Positions 12,602 to 63,125 of a stretch of 64,000 nucleotides of DNA are shown here, piece by piece; the first letter of the stretch is position 1, and the number at the start of each line of letters is the position of its first letter. Position numbers and translations under genes: made by a program. This stretch comes from Escherichia phage vB_EcoM_TU01, in sequence record MZ560701; one strand, given 5' to 3'. The notes under the pieces were generated by a model. That model was not told the origin of the DNA. It saw only the letters and a program-made list of their open reading frames with translations, and made no database searches.

Positions 12602-12825
12602 TGGCTAAATTGATTATAGAAGGGTCTGAAGATGTTTTAAAATGTTTTGCCGCCTGGTTTAGTTGCTCAGGCGAGCAATCATTCATTGAAGCATTTAGAA
12701 CGGGTGATATTACTGGAAAATATCCGTCAACCGATATCACTGTACGCGGATATGGTATTAATGAGCCTATCCAATTGGTCGAATACGACCTTGCCACCGA
12801 TGAGGAAATTCCTTATGTCGATTGA
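12601..12825 (+). CDS. hypothetical protein (74 aa)
   Basis: ORF, ATG overlaps upstream stop. Confidence 0.45.
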   Translation: MAKLIIEGSEDVLKCFAAWFSCSGEQSFIEAFRTGDITGKYPSTDITVRGYGINEPIQLVEYDLATDEEIPYVD

Positions 12826-13081
12826 AGACATCAAAGGCTACAAGCCGCATACCGATGATAAAATCGGTAAAGTGAACGCTATTAAAGATGCTGAAGTCCG
12901 TCTTGGATTGATGTTTGATGCTCTGATTGAAGAAGCATATATCTTGAAAGAAAATGAAACAGAGCAACAAACCAAAGAAGATATGGATGCAGTGCAGGCT
13001 CTTAAGTATGCTAAGCAACATCTAAAAGAAGCTAGTATGTGGGCGTGTCGTGCAGTATTTCGACCAGAGGAAAAATACTAA
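12815..13081 (+). CDS. hypothetical protein (88 aa)
   Basis: ATG 12815; track ORF 12647 start implausible because of overlap. Confidence 0.45.
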   Translation: MSIEDIKGYKPHTDDKIGKVNAIKDAEVRLGLMFDALIEEAYILKENETEQQTKEDMDAVQALKYAKQHLKEASMWACRAVFRPEEKY

Positions 13082-13296
13082 TGGCTTCTACTATTACTGG
13101 GTTATTGGACTTTCAAGAAAAGGTCAACAAAATTTGTAGTGAATACTTAAAGTATCTTGAAGAAGACNTTGAAGATTGTAAGGAAGAAGGCGAAGAAGAC
13201 TATGCTGACCAGCGTCGTCGCCAAATCGAAGAGATGAGGCATTTCGCCGATATGGTATCTAAAGAATCTTGGGCTTTAACTCCATTTTATCAATAA
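13081..13296 (+). CDS. hypothetical acidic protein (71 aa)
   Basis: ORF. Confidence 0.45.
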   Translation: MASTITGLLDFQEKVNKICSEYLKYLEEDXEDCKEEGEEDYADQRRRQIEEMRHFADMVSKESWALTPFYQ

Positions 13297-13300
13297 AGTA

Positions 13301-13329
13301 GTTTACTTCTCCTCTAGTTGTGTTACTAT
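13301..13329 (+). promoter_or_regulatory. early promoter
   Basis: GTTTAC, 17 nt, TACTAT then AGACCTTGTCAA. Confidence 0.55.
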
Positions 13330-13357
13330 AGACCTTGTCAACTAGAGGAGAAATCAA

Positions 13358-13816
13358 ATGACTATCAATTCAGACGTTTTTATCCGCCGTAATAAACTCC
13401 GTCGAATCTTTGAAACGGAGTTCCGCAAAATAAATGCCGGTATAAAAGATGCTGCAAAGTCTCTTGGACTACCAGGCTTTCATATCAAGTATTCTCAACA
13501 TCTCTTAGATCGTGCCATCCAGAGAGAAATAGATGAGAACTACGTTTTTGAATTATTTCGTAAAGTAAAAAATCATGTTAAAGAAGTTGCAGAATTTTTA
13601 TCAATGCCGGCACGTCCAGATGTTGATGAAGATTTTGTCGAAGGCGTCGAATATCGCCCAGGCCGTTTAGAAATAACTGACGGAAATCTTTGGTTAGGAC
13701 TTACAGTTTGTCGCGAAAATCCAGCATTCAAAATGAAGACTCTTCAATGCAGAATGGCTATTATTAACAGTAAACGACTACCAGGAAAAGCTTCTAAAGC
13801 AGTGATTAAAATCTAG
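13358..13816 (+). CDS. regB: RegB site-specific endoribonuclease
   Basis: Matches T4 RegB as recalled (MTIN...FIRRNKLRR...LEITDGNLWLG...CRMAIINS..LPGKASKAVIK); correct position after denV. Confidence 0.8.
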   Translation: MTINSDVFIRRNKLRRIFETEFRKINAGIKDAAKSLGLPGFHIKYSQHLLDRAIQREIDENYVFELFRKVKNHVKEVAEFLSMPARPDVDEDFVEGVEYRPGRLEITDGNLWLGLTVCRENPAFKMKTLQCRMAIINSKRLPGKASKAVIKI

Positions 13817-13824
13817 AGGTAAAC

Positions 13825-14367
13825 ATGAGAAAAGCACTACTCGCTGGTCTATTTGCTCTTTCGTTATCAGCACATAGCTCCGAGCATACTTTTAGTAATG
13901 TCCAACTCGATAACTTGAATTATGCTTATCAGTTTGGGGAACAGTTTTCTAAGGACGGAAAATTTAAAACGCATGAAAATATGCATAAGAAAGGACTTGG
14001 ATACATAATGGCCGCAATACTATGGCAGGAATCATCTGCCGGTATTAATCTTAAAGATAAGAAAGGTCACCATGCGTATGGAATGTTCCAAAATTATCTA
14101 CCAACAATGAGGGCAAGAATTAACCAGCTTGGTTATAATATGACTGATGCCCAAATTAAGAAAATGCTATCTAAGCGGTCTAATTCAGCCAGATGGGCTT
14201 ATATCGAATTTTCTTATTGGTTAAATATACATAATGGGGATATAAGAAAAGCTATATCCTCATATAACGCGGGATGGAAGACAAGTGCTGGAAGTAAATA
14301 TGCTTCTGAAGTCCTAGAAAAGGCCAATTACCTTAAATCAAATAAACTACTGGAAATAAAAGAATGA
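13825..14367 (+). CDS. secreted lytic-transglycosylase-like protein (T4 vs.1 position)
   Basis: Signal peptide MRKALLAGLFALSLSA; WQESSAG motif resembles the SLT catalytic E-S. Confidence 0.55.
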   Translation: MRKALLAGLFALSLSAHSSEHTFSNVQLDNLNYAYQFGEQFSKDGKFKTHENMHKKGLGYIMAAILWQESSAGINLKDKKGHHAYGMFQNYLPTMRARINQLGYNMTDAQIKKMLSKRSNSARWAYIEFSYWLNIHNGDIRKAISSYNAGWKTSAGSKYASEVLEKANYLKSNKLLEIKE

Positions 14368-14711
14368 CCAAAATGTTGGCTTTAATAGTTGGCTTGGTTT
14401 CATTTAACGCTCTTGCTAATACTACATATACTGATATAACGGAGTATACAAACAGAACGGCGTCTGATTATTGTGGTCAAAGTCAAGAGTGTAAAGTAGA
14501 TTTTTCACAAAAATTGTTATATGCGTATAAAGACGGAGAAAAAGATGGGGCGTCTAGTAGGTTCAAGGCGTCTACCTTAATTAAAAGATACTATAAAAAA
14601 TGGCAAATATTAGAATGCTCGGTGGCGGAACCTAAAGATAAGGCAGCATGCAATTCTATGGTGGACCGTCTAGTTGACTCTTATAATAGAGGACTTGCAG
14701 CAAGTGATTAA
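14364..14711 (+). CDS. secreted protein, 115 aa (T4 vs position)
   Basis: Signal peptide; same size and position as T4 Vs. Confidence 0.5.
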   Translation: MTKMLALIVGLVSFNALANTTYTDITEYTNRTASDYCGQSQECKVDFSQKLLYAYKDGEKDGASSRFKASTLIKRYYKKWQILECSVAEPKDKAACNSMVDRLVDSYNRGLAASD

Positions 14712-15171
14712 AAACTATATCAAGGGCGATATTGTCGCCCTGTTTTCTAAAGGTAATAATATCGCTCATGGGTGTAATTGTTTTCATACAATGGGCGCCG
14801 GTGTGGCAGGACAATTAGCAAAGGCTTATCCAAAAATTCTAGAAGCTGATAAACTTCAAACCGAATTCGGAGACGAGTCTAAACTCGGGACTTATTCGGT
14901 TTATGAAAAATATTTTAAGACCCATAAAGCTTATTGCTTTAATCTTTATACGCAGTTTGAGCCGGGACCTAATTTTGAGTACTCTGCTTTAATGAATTGT
15001 ATAATAGAATTAAATGAATTCGGAAAGAATAAGATAACAAAGCCTGTAATTTATATGCCAAGAATTGGTGCAGGTATTGGTGGTGGAAACTGGGATGTCA
15101 TCGAAGAGATTTTAGATACGTATTCCACTAAACTAGAAATTGTGATTGTTGATTGGGAACCATTATTATGA
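14704..15171 (+). CDS. macro domain protein (TARG1/DarG-like ADP-ribose hydrolase fold)
   Basis: KGDI...AHGCNCFHTMGAGVAGQL and YMPRIGAGIGGG motifs parallel TARG1 macro domain; start uncertain (GTG 14704 or TTG 14674). Confidence 0.7.
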   Translation: MIKNYIKGDIVALFSKGNNIAHGCNCFHTMGAGVAGQLAKAYPKILEADKLQTEFGDESKLGTYSVYEKYFKTHKAYCFNLYTQFEPGPNFEYSALMNCIIELNEFGKNKITKPVIYMPRIGAGIGGGNWDVIEEILDTYSTKLEIVIVDWEPLL

Positions 15172-15380
15172 ATATACATTATCCACATCCATATGACCCA
15201 AAGAATAAGGCAGTAATTATTCGTCAATGGGAACGAATTTGTCGTACCAAATGCCCAATTAATAGTCCACATGATGTAGATAAAGACTACATCGGAACAT
15301 TCGTTGAATATACCTTTATTGATAAGAAAGGCCGTAAACAACATGTAGAAGAATATTGCTTAAAGGTGACATGGCTATGA
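15168..15380 (+). CDS. hypothetical protein (70 aa)
   Basis: ATG overlapping upstream stop. Confidence 0.45.
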   Translation: MNIHYPHPYDPKNKAVIIRQWERICRTKCPINSPHDVDKDYIGTFVEYTFIDKKGRKQHVEEYCLKVTWL

Positions 15381-15583
15381 GTCAAACAAAAATTCTTACA
15401 GGTGCTAAATGCGAAAAATGCGAATGGCCTGTAGTTTTTGCTTTATGCAATGACGAAATGGCTTGTGATTTTGATTATTGGTGTTACTGTTCGAACAAAG
15501 GTTGTAGCAATCATAAAGGTGAAGGGTTTTACTCAGGATTTTACCCTTACCCAGATTTCGTTAAAGAAGGTGAACCTAAATGA
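15371..15583 (+). CDS. hypothetical Cys-rich protein
   Basis: ORF; 10 Cys. Confidence 0.45.
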   Translation: MAMSQTKILTGAKCEKCEWPVVFALCNDEMACDFDYWCYCSNKGCSNHKGEGFYSGFYPYPDFVKEGEPK

Positions 15584-15762
15584 AATTAACTAAAGAAGAG
15601 AAAGCTAAACTGTTTGAACTTATTCATGACCTATTGGATGAGCAAGCAGCCACCAATGCGTACGATGAATATGCTCCTTTAACAGATGAAGAATATCAAG
15701 CATTGATGGAATCATTTGACAGGAAAGAACAAGAACTCATTGACTACGTGAATTCACTATAA
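15580..15762 (+). CDS. hypothetical acidic protein (60 aa)
   Basis: ORF. Confidence 0.4.
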   Translation: MKLTKEEKAKLFELIHDLLDEQAATNAYDEYAPLTDEEYQALMESFDRKEQELIDYVNSL

Positions 15763-15771
15763 GGGACTCTT

Positions 15772-16353
15772 ATGGCTAGTTTAATTTTTACATATGCCGC
15801 TATGAACGCTGGTAAGTCTGCTTCATTACTTACTGCCGCACATAACTATAAAGAACGTGGCATGGGTGTATTAGTTCTTAAACCGGCTATTGATACTCGC
15901 GATTCAAAAGGTGAAATAGTCTCTCGTATTGGTATTCGTCAGGACGCCAATATAATTACAAAAGACATGGATATCTTTGAATTCTATAAATGGGCTGCAG
16001 CACAAAAGGATATTCATTGTGTATTTGTTGACGAAGCTCAGTTCTTAACTACTGAAAAGGTGTATCAACTTAGTCGTATTGTTGACGTATACAATGTGCC
16101 GGTAATGGCATATGGACTACGAACAGATTTTAAAGGTAATCTATTTGAAGGTTCTCAAGCATTAATGGCTATTGCCGATAAGCTTGTTGAACTTAAAGGT
16201 GTCTGTCATTGTGGTAAAAAGGCCACAATGGTAGCTAGAGTCACGGAAGACGGACTTCCAATTACAGATGGCAGTCAAATTGAAATTGGTGATACCGATA
16301 GATATGTGTCATTATGCCGGAAGCATTGGAATGATTTGACAGGGTTGTTATAA
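15772..16353 (+). CDS. tk: thymidine kinase
   Basis: MASLIFTYAAMNAGKSASLL P-loop; closely matches T4 Tk (193 aa). Confidence 0.95.
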   Translation: MASLIFTYAAMNAGKSASLLTAAHNYKERGMGVLVLKPAIDTRDSKGEIVSRIGIRQDANIITKDMDIFEFYKWAAAQKDIHCVFVDEAQFLTTEKVYQLSRIVDVYNVPVMAYGLRTDFKGNLFEGSQALMAIADKLVELKGVCHCGKKATMVARVTEDGLPITDGSQIEIGDTDRYVSLCRKHWNDLTGLL

Positions 16354-16380
16354 ATACTAATATCTAACCAAGAGGTATAT

Positions 16381-16593
16381 ATGCAGCAATTAAACGAAAG
16401 ACAACTTCGTAATCTTACTGTAACCCAATTGGATGAAATCCGAAGAGAATTAGGACATTCTATTTCTCATTTAAACGAGGATATCCGTCAAACTGGTTCT
16501 AAAGCTGATTATACACGCAAGCGCAAGCTGGAAAAATACCTCACAGATGTTAAGGCCGTCCAAAGGCGAAAAATAAATACTGGCCAAAATTAA
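16381..16593 (+). CDS. hypothetical protein (70 aa)
   Basis: ORF with gagg RBS. Confidence 0.45.
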
Positions 16594-16605
16594 CAGGAGG
16601 CCTAT

Positions 16606-16908
16606 ATGGCCTTAAGAGCGATAGCTGTCATGGCGATGCTGGGGTTTTTTGCAGCAACAACTCCTAACGTTGGTACTGCGTACACCGACCCATATTTTGA
16701 TAACTTTATGGAATCAGGGATTAAAAACGTATATACTTTGTTTGAAATTCAAAATGTCGAGAATTCTGAAAAATTCTATAAGTATATGGCAAAGCATTAC
16801 AAAAATAGCCCCTGTGACGATGCATTTGAATGTCATGAACAAGGCATAAAAACTGCCAGACAATTTGCCGAGTTCATGAAAATAAAATTAGAGCCTACAT
16901 CTATCTAA
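16606..16908 (+). CDS. rI: lysis-inhibition regulator RI (antiholin)
   Basis: MALRAIAVMAMLGFF signal-anchor and FMESGI...KNSPCDD..FEC resemble T4 RI. Confidence 0.8.
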   Translation: MALRAIAVMAMLGFFAATTPNVGTAYTDPYFDNFMESGIKNVYTLFEIQNVENSEKFYKYMAKHYKNSPCDDAFECHEQGIKTARQFAEFMKIKLEPTSI

Positions 16909-16914
16909 TTTACT

Positions 16915-16944
16915 AGCCCCTTCCTTACGGTTGGGGCTTTTTTG
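16915..16944 (+). terminator. rho-independent terminator
   Basis: agcccc...ggggct then T6; duplicate of 745-775. Confidence 0.7.
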
Positions 16945-16953
16945 CATTTAGCA

Positions 16954-16982
16954 GTTTACTTCTCCTCAGGTTGTGTTATAGT
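16954..16982 (+). promoter_or_regulatory. early promoter
   Basis: GTTTAC, 17 nt, TATAGT. Confidence 0.55.
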
Positions 16983-17009
16983 AGTCCTTACTTACTAGAG
17001 GAGAACGTT

Positions 17010-17189
17010 ATGTCACGTAAAGAAAAAATTTCTAAGTTAATGTTTTTGATTGAAGAGTACGCTAATGCGGTATCTGATTGGGAAAATGCTCATGGTTGCG
17101 AAGATGGAGACATCGACATTAACAGAGCTATGAAAAAGATGGCCGATGCCCACACCGAATTGCAAATGTATGTTAACGAGATTATGTGA
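17010..17189 (+). CDS. hypothetical protein (59 aa)
   Basis: ATG 17010 after gaggag RBS. Confidence 0.45.
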   Translation: MSRKEKISKLMFLIEEYANAVSDWENAHGCEDGDIDINRAMKKMADAHTELQMYVNEIM

Positions 17190-17196
17190 GGATATT

Positions 17197-17361
17197 ATGC
17201 TTTACGATTATACTGGAAAATCTGAAGACGGTGTACTTGAACTTTTACCTGAAAGCGCTGAAGATGATATGGTAGTGATGTTTTGTGTTGGTTGTCAATC
17301 AATGCGTGATGAAATTTTTAAACGTGAACCAAGAAACTGTTGGCACAGGAGCATGAGATGA
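17197..17361 (+). CDS. small protein, MLYD family copy 1
   Basis: N-terminus MLYDYTGKSEDGVLELLPE, paralog of 17453 ORF. Confidence 0.5.
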   Translation: MLYDYTGKSEDGVLELLPESAEDDMVVMFCVGCQSMRDEIFKREPRNCWHRSMR

Positions 17362-17453
17362 TTTATTATCTTGAACCTTGGGCTTGGTTAACAATGGCTG
17401 TAGGACCTGTTTTAATTGGTTTATTCTTTTCATGGTTAGCGAGGAAACTGTAA
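17358..17453 (+). CDS. small hydrophobic peptide (31 aa)
   Basis: ORF between the two MLYD paralogs. Confidence 0.3.
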   Translation: MIYYLEPWAWLTMAVGPVLIGLFFSWLARKL

Positions 17454-17668
17454 TGTTATATGACCCAAGCGGNNNTTNTGAAGATGGTGTGATTGTTCTG
17501 GAGCCTGAGCATCCAGTTGGTGATGTATATCGCNCNGTTGAAGTATGCGAATGTAATTTCGTTGAAGGTAATACTGGCGGAATTTCCATTGAGCAAGATG
17601 ATGATGTTATTTACCTGGATGCAAGCCAAGTAGAAGCTCTTTATAGCATTTTAAAACACAATCGGTAG
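17453..17668 (+). CDS. small protein, MLYD family copy 2
   Basis: N-terminus MLYDPSxxxEDGVIVLEPE. Confidence 0.5.
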   Translation: MLYDPSXXXEDGVIVLEPEHPVGDVYRXVEVCECNFVEGNTGGISIEQDDDVIYLDASQVEALYSILKHNR

Positions 17669-56821: not shown

Positions 56822-57472
56822 ATGATTTATTATATGCACAAAAATGCGCCATTTAAATATGGTAAATTTCCTAATGCACAATGTTATAATATAACGCCGA
56901 ATGAAAATAATAACGGATACCATATTGGTGTAATTTTTGTAATTGTTAAAGATAACGAAATCGTTGCCTGGGCAGATTTTAAAGGTACAACATATGATGT
57001 TAATCCAGTGCCTTTCACATATTACAACATAATGGATTTGGCATATGATTATAACTGGTTTAATCATGACGCGTTGGCTCATATTGAAGGTGTAGGATTT
57101 GACATCTCTTATTCTAGCTATTCATTATGTCCTATGAGCCGAGCTCACGGTAAAGATGCATCATATCTTTCAATTCGGAAACGTGTAAACTTCAAACGTA
57201 GCACAGAGTATGTTGGTGGACTCTTTGTTAAAGATAATAAAATAACCCGTATTAGTTATCCTTTAAGTGTAGGTCAAAAAGATGTTGATGTTGATTTAGA
57301 CTTAACCGAAAATAACATTAATCATATTGCTTCTGTATATTTTGATATCGATGAAAAAATTGTAGTGTGTGGATACGAATTACCACCTGAAGAAAAGGCT
57401 GAAGCAATTGAAGTCGAATTAGAAATTTCTGTTGATGACCAAATATTTAATGCATTTATGAATCGAGGTTAA
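56822..57472 (+). CDS. hypothetical protein (216 aa)
   Basis: ATG 56822; ORF. Confidence 0.5.
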   Translation: MIYYMHKNAPFKYGKFPNAQCYNITPNENNNGYHIGVIFVIVKDNEIVAWADFKGTTYDVNPVPFTYYNIMDLAYDYNWFNHDALAHIEGVGFDISYSSYSLCPMSRAHGKDASYLSIRKRVNFKRSTEYVGGLFVKDNKITRISYPLSVGQKDVDVDLDLTENNINHIASVYFDIDEKIVVCGYELPPEEKAEAIEVELEISVDDQIFNAFMNRG

Positions 57473-60840: not shown

Positions 60841-61016
60841 ACANGATAGTAAAATGGTTTAAAAGCTGGGACGATGGTGTCGGTCCGGAAGATTGGCTGG
60901 ATGTTCTTGAAGAGAATATGGCTAAAGAATTCCAGAAACACGAAGAGAAGCTCGTCGAAGATGAAGGCGAACGTATTGTAAAACTTTATATGGGTGAACC
61001 ATCGAGGAAATTATAA
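60837..61016 (+). CDS. hypothetical acidic protein (59 aa)
   Basis: ORF. Confidence 0.4.
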   Translation: MNXIVKWFKSWDDGVGPEDWLDVLEENMAKEFQKHEEKLVEDEGERIVKLYMGEPSRKL

Positions 61017-61480
61017 TGGATGCTATGTTATTTAAAATGTATTTGCTTGAAGCCAAGTCGTTTAAACATATACCAGTAGAAGATAAGACTCCACTAGAAA
61101 TAGCTATTCTCATTAACAAAAGTCTAAATAATCCGCAATATATCGTAGAAGAATTCTGCAAATTGCAGATTCCTAAAGGTTATAAAATTCGTGTAGAGCG
61201 AGTTGGAGCTATTACTCATTCTAAAAATTCTCCGTTTAGTCTTGAAGAAGGCATAAAGGACTTAGGTTATGAATCTACGGAAAATGCAGTTTATGTGAAT
61301 CCAGAAAAGCGTTTAGACCTGTTTGAAAAGCGAGACCATAAGTATTTTGCCAAAAAATACTTTATTACATCATTAGCAGATTTAANCCATTTGCAACGAG
61401 CTATTTGGAAATTTTTTAAGACAAAAGGTGTAGCACTAGAAACATTCTCTGAACCTGCTAGTTTTTATCTTGGTGAATAA
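61016..61480 (+). CDS. hypothetical protein (154 aa)
   Basis: ORF. Confidence 0.5.
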   Translation: MDAMLFKMYLLEAKSFKHIPVEDKTPLEIAILINKSLNNPQYIVEEFCKLQIPKGYKIRVERVGAITHSKNSPFSLEEGIKDLGYESTENAVYVNPEKRLDLFEKRDHKYFAKKYFITSLADLXHLQRAIWKFFKTKGVALETFSEPASFYLGE

Positions 61481-61481
61481 T

Positions 61482-61661
61482 ATGGACNTNATGAGTATGT
61501 TTGATGAGCCTGAAGTTGAGGCTCCTAAAGTGCATCGTAGTGAACTTGTTGATGAACTAGATAGTATTATACAACGTCACGGCTTTAGTTTACCTGTTGA
61601 AGCCCTGAAAGACCTTGCCTCTTATTATGACGACCCTCCACCATGGAGTCCTTGGAAATGA
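61482..61661 (+). CDS. hypothetical protein (59 aa)
   Basis: ORF. Confidence 0.4.
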   Translation: MDXMSMFDEPEVEAPKVHRSELVDELDSIIQRHGFSLPVEALKDLASYYDDPPPWSPWK

Positions 61662-61822
61662 AAGAGAAATTTAAAGAGAAATTCTTACTAGAAATCAAGG
61701 AAAAAGACTTTGAGACATGGTATCGAATGGTGAAAGGGTTGACATTGCTTTTTAAAGCATCCTTATTCATGTTAGAACAACCTGGACCTGATGGACCTTT
61801 AGTAGGAAAGCTTAAAAAGTAG
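61658..61822 (+). CDS. hypothetical protein (54 aa)
   Basis: ORF below track cutoff. Confidence 0.35.
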   Translation: MKEKFKEKFLLEIKEKDFETWYRMVKGLTLLFKASLFMLEQPGPDGPLVGKLKK

Positions 61823-61850
61823 TTTACATTCCCTCCTCTCGTGTTATGAT
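61822..61850 (+). promoter_or_regulatory. early promoter
   Basis: GTTTAC, 17 nt, TATGAT. Confidence 0.45.
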
Positions 61851-61877
61851 AGGCTTATCTTTAAATGGAGGTCTATC

Positions 61878-62459
61878 ATGACATGTCAATCTGAACTTCA
61901 AGAACGTGAATACCTAACAAATCTGATTGATAGCAAATTCACCCGCCAAGAACAAAACATTCTCTGGGCTTGCACCGATTCTAAGGAAGACCCGGATTTC
62001 CACTATGAATTAGACCATCTTGTTCGTAAGCATATGACTTCTACAGTACCAGTAGAACTCTACCGTGGTGTAACTCCAGAAGAAGTAGAACGTCTTTCAC
62101 TTCTTTCTGTTGGATGCCATTGGTCTCCTGGACGAGTAACATCGTTCACAACTGATTTCAGTACAGCTCGTCAATTCTCCGGGAGATGGGAATATCAGAC
62201 GTACACTATTCTTAGTCTCAGGAATGCTCCATTCATTTTTGATTACTACCAAAACATGGTTAACATTGTACTTGCCGGAAAGAACCCTAAGCATGTTATG
62301 GAAGAAACTCGTNTNGATGTCCTAGATATGATTGAATCTGAACAAGAGTACATGGTCTCAGGTATCTCTAGATTTGAGATTGTGGAAATTGAAGACTTAG
62401 AATATGACCCTTTATCTCGATTATACAAAATCATTCATTTAAAAATGTTGAATTTTTAG
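61878..62459 (+). CDS. ADP-ribosyltransferase, ModA/ModB-like (R-S-ExE type), copy 1
   Basis: YRGV, FSTAR and ESEQEYM motifs; paralog of the next ORF. Confidence 0.6.
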   Translation: MTCQSELQEREYLTNLIDSKFTRQEQNILWACTDSKEDPDFHYELDHLVRKHMTSTVPVELYRGVTPEEVERLSLLSVGCHWSPGRVTSFTTDFSTARQFSGRWEYQTYTILSLRNAPFIFDYYQNMVNIVLAGKNPKHVMEETRXDVLDMIESEQEYMVSGISRFEIVEIEDLEYDPLSRLYKIIHLKMLNF

Positions 62460-62488
62460 TGTACAAACTCTACNGACGATGATACTAT
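62459..62488 (+). promoter_or_regulatory. early promoter
   Basis: GTGTAC, 18 nt, TACTAT. Confidence 0.45.
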
Positions 62489-62516
62489 ACTTTTATCAAC
62501 CACAGGAGAAACCTAA

Positions 62517-63125
62517 ATGTTTATGCCGTATAATGAATGTGAAATTGAGGAAATGGTTCGACGTGCNCAAAACCCCGAATATCAAGATGTATTGCAGTAC
62601 GAAATNGATAGTCAATTCAGCGACATTGAACAAAGTGTACTGTGGCAATGTATGGAAAACAAGCCAGACAGCATCCAACAAGATTTAAGTGCAATTGTTC
62701 GTAGAAATTGGTCNTCTTCNGTTCCTGAGACAATGTATCGTGGAATCTCTAAGAAAACTATGGCCACACTCGACGATAAAGGCNTTGGTAGTATTATTAA
62801 ATTTGACAGAGTAATGAGCTTTAGTCCGGTGTTCGGTGTAGCACGTAACTTCGCTTCATATAATTTTTATGGAACATTTAATATGTTCTGCATCAAAGAT
62901 GCACCATTTGCTTTCAACTTCCGTGAACATATGCTTAATATGATTCTGGCTGCACCATCTTGTGAGTTCAATGGAGCTTTCCCTGAAGCGACAAGACGGT
63001 CTAATGCTAGACTTATATCTGACGAATGTGAATTTATGCTCCCTATAGGGACTACACTGCGTGTAGATTCTATTATTCAAGATGGACGTTATACAATCTG
63101 GAATCTGTCTATTGTCAGTTACTGA
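62517..63125 (+). CDS. ADP-ribosyltransferase, ModA/ModB-like (R-S-ExE type), copy 2
   Basis: YRGI, SFSPVFGVAR and SDECEFM motifs. Confidence 0.6.
   Translation: MFMPYNECEIEEMVRRXQNPEYQDVLQYEXDSQFSDIEQSVLWQCMENKPDSIQQDLSAIVRRNWXSXVPETMYRGISKKTMATLDDKGXGSIIKFDRVMSFSPVFGVARNFASYNFYGTFNMFCIKDAPFAFNFREHMLNMILAAPSCEFNGAFPEATRRSNARLISDECEFMLPIGTTLRVDSIIQDGRYTIWNLSIVSY

Follow-up and report, generated by a model that had tools for sequence, protein, structure and literature searches.

The gene at positions 14704–15171 (+) of the 64,000-nucleotide stretch of Escherichia phage vB_EcoM_TU01 DNA analyzed here (record MZ560701; hereafter the window) is the ortholog of T4 tk.4 (adfM) in a Mosigvirus-type T-even phage. 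It encodes a protein of 155 aa with a single macro domain and is an ordinary, well-conserved gene of the T4 family. We consider it probable, at about three chances in four, that the protein is an orphan-antitoxin-like macro domain that hydrolyzes the adducts made by DarT2 and uses glutamine chemistry to do so. The DarTG2 phenotype behind this reading was obtained in T4 only and comes from a preprint.

Gene structure and orthology with T4 tk.4

The mechanically called open reading frame with its stop at 15171 (+) opens at TTG 14674 and has 165 aa. Residue 11 of this frame, encoded by GTG 14704, is the first residue in all homologs found by tblastn, and the ATG of T4 tk.4 aligns with the same codon in the DNA alignment; we therefore place the start at GTG 14704 and the stop at TGA 15169–15171. 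A Shine-Dalgarno sequence, GAGGA (14689–14693, +), can be read inside the 3′ end of vs, 10 nt before the GTG, and it is kept in T4, Yersinia phage PYps32T, and Klebsiella phage EI (as GAGGT in the last). The TTG 14674 start was rejected: the extension lies inside vs and is reached by no homolog. The original prediction had given the coordinates correctly but had left the start codon uncertain, a point that the homolog starts, the T4 alignment, and the GAGGA settle in favor of GTG 14704. In the GenBank record of phage JN02, the corresponding CDS (locus L002, 3492–3872, equivalent to window 14791–15171) has been opened at Met30, the first ATG, in place of the true GTG start, which leaves a "macro domain protein" of 126 aa. 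This truncated annotation, present in at least one GenBank record, loses the His22/Asn25 pocket.

The upstream neighbor is vs, the valyl-tRNA synthetase modifier gene (14364–14711, +; PHROG 1256, E = 1.7e-35, and T4 synteny), and the downstream neighbor is a small tk.3-like gene (15168–15380, +), whose PHROG 2008 match begins at residue 6 of a TTG-initiated frame, that is, at 15168. The end of vs overlaps the start of the macro gene by 8 nt, and the TGA of the macro gene overlaps the ATG of the tk.3-like gene as ATGA. The macro gene is thus overlapped by both neighbors, which indicates translational coupling on either side. A scan of 12800–16500 for a promoter belonging to the macro gene gave 10 promoter-like sites, compared with 12.5 expected from shuffled sequence, and the same interval held three terminator-like sites (2.3 expected). 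The scan assigned no promoter to the macro gene itself, which is most likely expressed together with the regB–tk block around it.

At 14723–14741 (+), 19 nt into the macro gene, the sequence AGGGCGAtatTGTCGCCCT forms a GC-rich hairpin with a perfect 8-bp stem; with GTTTTCT directly after it, the element resembles a terminator. The RNA fold of 14680–14760 has a z-score of −2.5. T4 and Yersinia phage PYps32T carry an identical hairpin, but Klebsiella phage EI does not preserve it, and for this reason we regard it as probably either a by-product of the KGDIVAL codons or a peculiarity of this lineage. The macro gene contains no ambiguous bases. All 270 Ns of the window are isolated and fall elsewhere (e.g., 153, 556, 17473–17478, and within 61016–63125), with none in 13169–17472; they give X residues in several open reading frames.

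The window protein and T4 Tk.4 (NP_049723) are identical at 131 of 155 residues (85%) over the full length without gaps. The T4 gene order is regB, vs.1, vs, tk.4, tk.3, tk.2, tk.1, tk, and the window gene occupies the tk.4 slot, so that its earlier placement in the regB–tk interval was correct. The order from regB through vs.1, vs, and tk.4 to tk is common to T4, Yersinia phage PYps32T, and Klebsiella phage EI. The two genes share the start position, the Shine-Dalgarno sequence, and the H-G-C-N-C, N-L-Y-T-Q, and P-R-I-G-A-G-I-G motifs; they differ in the start codon (ATG in T4, GTG here), in 24 substitutions, and in the phage that carries them (a Tequatrovirus and a Mosigvirus-type phage, respectively). 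The dN/dS ratio against T4 tk.4 is 0.07, showing that the gene is under purifying selection. The region itself is 99.7–99.9% identical to Mosigvirus-type coliphages such as JN02 (99.7%) and GADS24.

The family is widespread. By tblastn, 2,799 of 50,697 phage records contain a relative of the macro protein. When 1.84 billion cluster representatives were searched with the family profile, 1,168 clusters at 50% identity reached E ≤ 1e-30, and 8,666 reached E ≤ 1e-10. The allele of Yersinia phage PYps32T, a Tequatrovirus, encodes a protein just 58% identical to that of the window, whereas the end of vs and the first ~60 nt of its gene (locus L005, 1481–1561) closely match T4; a stretch of ~26 nt at the hairpin is identical in the window phage, T4, and PYps32T. 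This pattern suggests a recombination boundary just within the PYps32T macro gene. In the Acinetobacter phages vB_AbaM_D22 and B09_Aci05 (H56 and H58), the macro homolog directly adjoins a nicotinamide phosphoribosyltransferase gene, which hints at a link between the macro homolog and NAD+ salvage in some lineages.

Macro domain class and the glutamine-type active site

A TARG1/DarG-like macro domain had been proposed from motifs, with a profile search as the check. With 28.1 bits, the protein exceeds the gathering cut-off of Pfam Macro (PF01661), which is 22 (E = 2.2e-6; profile positions 2–117 of 118), and it matches PHROG 335, which is named "phosphatase", with E = 8e-67; a resemblance of this order lies well outside what chance would give. 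DarG is its sole match in NCBIfam (31.6 bits, where the cut-off is 250; positions 4–146 of 338) and in PADLOC (33.2 bits; model positions 4–145 of 329). An AlphaFold2 model built from 63 homologs has a pLDDT of 95.1 and a pTM of 0.90, and Foldseek ranks TARG1 (5e-10), Poa1p, BT1257, and DarG at the top of the PDB. The structure is nearest to TARG1, DarG, Poa1p, and SCO6735, and not to the MacroD, coronavirus, or PARG types. The assignment to the ALC1/TARG1-like macrodomain class, or "TARG1/DarG-like", is therefore correct. The kinship of the T4-type family to DarG is nevertheless remote (about 32 bits).

The motifs that had been quoted in support of this class are present as IKGDI (residues 6–10), MGAGVA (30–35), and MPRIGAG (118–124), but the one given as "HC.C" really reads H22-G-C-N-C26. 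The segment H22-G23-C24-N25-C26 (14767–14781, +) is assigned to the distal-ribose pocket for ADP-ribose from mutagenesis of SCO6735 and from conservation in the homologs. The first glycine-rich (GxG) phosphate-binding loop, M30-G-A-G-V-A35 (14791–14808, +), aligns with MGAG of TARG1 and MGKG of DarG, and its G33 and A35 are invariant. The second phosphate-binding loop, located by hhalign to TARG1, is P119-R-I-G-A-G-I-G-G-G-N-W130 (15058–15093, +). Between the two loops lies N80-L-Y-T-Q84 (14941–14955, +), also located by hhalign, in which Gln84 is encoded by CAG 14953–14955.

When the family profile was aligned by hhalign with DarG plus PhiKZ AdfM (probability 98.7%), F-N-F-P-T-K of DarG fell under F-N-L-Y-T-Q of the window protein, which puts Gln84 at the position of Lys80. 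The alignment with TARG1, whose sequence was identical to that of the PDB entries, places Gln84 at Lys84 and Gly126 at Asp125 (hhalign, probability 98.2%). By hhalign, the Lys84/Asp125 dyad of TARG1 is thus absent from the window protein, as is the catalytic Lys80 of the FPTK motif of DarG, the latter also by way of a Rhodococcus phage homolog. Gln84 is invariant in 120/120 homologs of the first search and in 141/141 further 50%-cluster representatives. Across these 261 homologs, Asn25 is found in 260 and His22 in 253, and position 126 is always Ala or Gly and never Asp; the loop glycines G124, G126, and G128 are present and conserved. The Rhodococcus phage Weasels2 homolog (locus L003, 1528–1983) reaches 115 bits with the DarG model and matches Mycobacterium tuberculosis DarG at E = 1e-19, and it carries AHGCNC and NLGTQ with the same Gln-for-Lys equivalence. 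It stands between both groups, and Gln-type and Lys-type enzymes therefore intergrade.

A precedent for this arrangement is SCO6735 of Streptomyces coelicolor, which has no Lys/Asp dyad and carries Gln85 at the site of DarG K80 and TARG1 K84 (PMC9411070). SCO6735 cleaves ADP-ribose from thymidine in DNA, removes in vitro the ADP-ribose that DarT2 adds to ssDNA, and gives protection from DarT; its Q85A mutant is dead, N27S is nearly dead, His24 and Gly128 matter too, and a water-mediated mechanism has been proposed for its catalysis (PMC9411070). The original prediction had named loss of the Lys/Asp equivalents as a reason to abandon the assignment. The loss is real (Gln84 and Gly126), but the function is not refuted by it: the demand for Lys and Asp is too strict, because SCO6735, also of the Gln type, cleaves thymidine-linked ADP-ribose (PMC9411070).

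SCO6735 (PDB 5e3b) resembles the window protein in its ALC1 class (profile E = 2.9e-14; Foldseek TM 0.70–0.73), in the Gln site, the His-x-x-Asn pair, and the loop glycines, an equivalence that is transitive via DarG and TARG1, and in being a stand-alone protein without an adjoining cognate DarT. The three-residue spacing of its His24 and Asn27 recurs in H22 and N25. It differs in being encoded by a bacterial chromosomal gene with a DNA-damage promoter, and the identity in the Foldseek alignment is ~22%. In PDB sequence searches with the window protein, the family profile, and the Rhodococcus phage homolog as queries, 5e3b ranked 7th–8th. DarG (Thermus aquaticus, 5m31/5m3e; M. tuberculosis, 5m3i) differs from the window protein in three respects: its Lys80 is replaced by Gln84, its C-terminal DarT-binding domain has no counterpart in the 155 residues, and darT is not adjacent here, the window gene lying between vs and the tk.3-like gene in the phage early region.

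The name AdfM was also given independently, in a 2026 Cell Reports paper, to gp104 of phage PhiKZ, which in vitro frees an oligonucleotide of the ADP-ribose attached by DarT2 and is less active as the N23A mutant (PMC13309987). PhiKZ AdfM, from a chimallivirus, is likewise an orphan macro domain of a phage directed against DarTG2, and its N23 aligns with N25. In contrast to the window protein, it retains the FPTK lysine, scores 133–138 bits on the DarG models (T4 Tk.4 and the window protein reach only 30–36 bits on the same models), and matches M. tuberculosis DarG with E = 9e-25. BLASTP of the window protein against PhiKZ gp104 gave a match of only 23 residues. The T4-type and PhiKZ-type AdfM proteins are different subfamilies under one name, and the biochemistry of PhiKZ AdfM is not simply transferable because of this remoteness. 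SCO6735 is the better mechanistic model for the window protein.

TARG1/OARD1 (4j5r), BT1257 (2afc/2fg1), and Poa1p (6lfq) are the nearest solved folds. BT1257 of Bacteroides, the closest solved structure and one with no described function, also has Asn-x-x-x-Gln (NMIGQ) on the catalytic strand. Yeast Poa1p, an ADP-ribose-1''-phosphate phosphatase, shares the pocket motif as H-S-C-N-C but has Ser in place of the Gln. His23 and Ser30 are the residues named in the deposited PDB mutants of Poa1p; the His aligns with H22, and position 29 is Thr in the window protein and T, L, V, S, or Q in the family.

Protection against DarTG2 and alternative roles

In a T4 transposon library grown on E. coli expressing DarTG2, tk.4 was the single significant HIDEN-SEQ hit; T4 with a clean tk.4 knockout, plated at 30 °C, proved sensitive to DarTG2, and tk.4 received the new name adfM, for anti-DarT factor macrodomain (bioRxiv 10.1101/2025.11.20.689424). 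A role in countering DarT-type defenses, as in the original prediction, is supported for the window gene through this knockout phenotype, the T4 gene being its syntenic, 85% identical ortholog. The idea is right yet not new, because it has already been published for T4. The same preprint, of November 2025, inferred DNA de-ADP-ribosylation by T4 AdfM solely from structural similarity to M. tuberculosis DarG (bioRxiv 10.1101/2025.11.20.689424). Against DarTG1, T-even phages have another protein, the NADAR enzyme gp30.3/AdfN, and T2 and T4 without adfN stay resistant to DarTG2 (PMC11825919); the DarTG2 plaque assays of that study used sub-MIC chloramphenicol.

In the mechanism that we propose, DarT2 of the host would ADP-ribosylate thymidines of single-stranded phage DNA and so block replication, and the phage macro domain would bind the ADP-ribose and hydrolyze the thymine–ribose bond, restoring the DNA. 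Gln84, held by Asn25 with His22 nearby, may position the distal ribose as in SCO6735, without the lysine mechanism of TARG1 and DarG. We infer that the window protein and T4 Tk.4 are catalytically active DNA ADP-ribosylglycohydrolases. A more tentative variant, which we regard as possible but doubtful, is that the T4-type branch, very large, lysine-less, and of the Gln type, has substrates beyond DarT2 adducts or that its protection is partly non-catalytic. If so, this branch would have a chemistry unlike that of DarG, with substrates such as other nucleic-acid or small-molecule conjugates of ADP-ribose.

Protection might be wholly non-catalytic, with the macro domain binding DarT2 or ADP-ribosylated DNA and acting by interaction-inhibition or shielding. 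The window protein lacks the Lys with which DarG and TARG1 catalyze, and the T4 tk.4 phenotype fits binding as well as hydrolysis. Moreover, the dead mutants SCO6735 Q85A, DarG K80A, and TARG1 K84A still inhibit DarT in vitro, SCO6735 the most (PMC9411070), so that protection need not be enzymatic. However, the His, Asn, Gln, and loop Gly required in SCO6735 are invariant or nearly so in the 261 homologs, which argues for a conserved catalytic pocket; the window protein lacks the C-terminal domain with which DarG binds DarT, and a stoichiometric binder would need to recognize diverse DarT2s. We consider this explanation improbable. The similarity to Poa1p and the argument of Iyer et al. 2022 point instead to an enzyme for small molecules, one that would dephosphorylate ADP-ribose-1''-phosphate, deacetylate O-acetyl-ADP-ribose, or break down immune signals derived from ADP-ribose, any effect on DarT2 being secondary. 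This too seems unlikely, since Poa1p has Ser where the present family has its invariant Gln, and the "A1pp phosphatase" name is a domain-level transfer, carried by T4 tk.4 in its GenBank label ("phosphatase; contains A1pp phosphatase motif"). The small-molecule role also sits poorly with the T4 data, in which tk.4 is the sole hit on DarTG2 and the deletion defect is DarTG2-specific (bioRxiv 10.1101/2025.11.20.689424).

The weakest of the rivals, and in our estimate a very improbable one, makes the protein an eraser for the phage's own Alt, ModA, and ModB, reversing or timing the Arg-linked ADP-ribosylation of proteins or the RNAylation of host proteins. It draws on the coexistence of a writer and a possible eraser in T-even phages: the R-S-ExE ADP-ribosyltransferases that had been predicted at 61878–63125 are confirmed as a tandem pair of ModA/ModB-like open reading frames (61878–62459 and 62517–63125, +; PHROG 832). 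The macro family, however, occurs in 2,799 phage records and the Mod-like transferases in 1,080 (~2.6-fold fewer), and the macro set is rich in phages of Pseudomonas, Vibrio, Acinetobacter, and Aeromonas, none of which is among the leading genera of the Mod-like set. The known targets of ALC1/TARG1-class macrodomains are carboxylate esters, thymidine, and phosphate ends; arginine N-glycosides are not known to be among them. In HIDEN-SEQ, furthermore, the tk.4 phenotype was conditional on DarTG2 only (bioRxiv 10.1101/2025.11.20.689424). The suggestion that the macro domain tunes the phage's own ADP-ribosylation thus finds no support, the macro family being far commoner than the transferases. 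A general eraser of ADP-ribosylating defenses was rejected as well: CmdTAC, an mRNA ADP-ribosyltransferase system, strongly defends against wild-type T4, which carries tk.4.

Both transferases of the Mod-like pair contain X residues arising from the isolated Ns. They are 30–38% identical to T4 ModA/ModB, and the macro gene is far less diverged (85%). The window also encodes, at 56822–57469 (+), a homolog of T4 gp61.2 (AdfA, an anti-DarTG1 factor) with 66% identity. Where the T4 protein has its histidine (INHIAS), this homolog also has His, counted as His165 in the alignment. Phage RB69 acquires R164H to escape DarTG1 (PMC11825919). Judging from the alignment, His165 appears to be the residue of the RB69 R164H change, and the phage probably has an "active-type" AdfA allele besides AdfM.

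Hydrolysis of DarT2 adducts by a Gln-type macro domain remains our preferred reading for the window protein. The phage carries a DarTG2 counter-defense gene of the T4 kind, which helps the prediction of its host range, and the remaining novelty is mechanistic, residing in the lysine-less, Gln-type site and the remote kinship to DarG.
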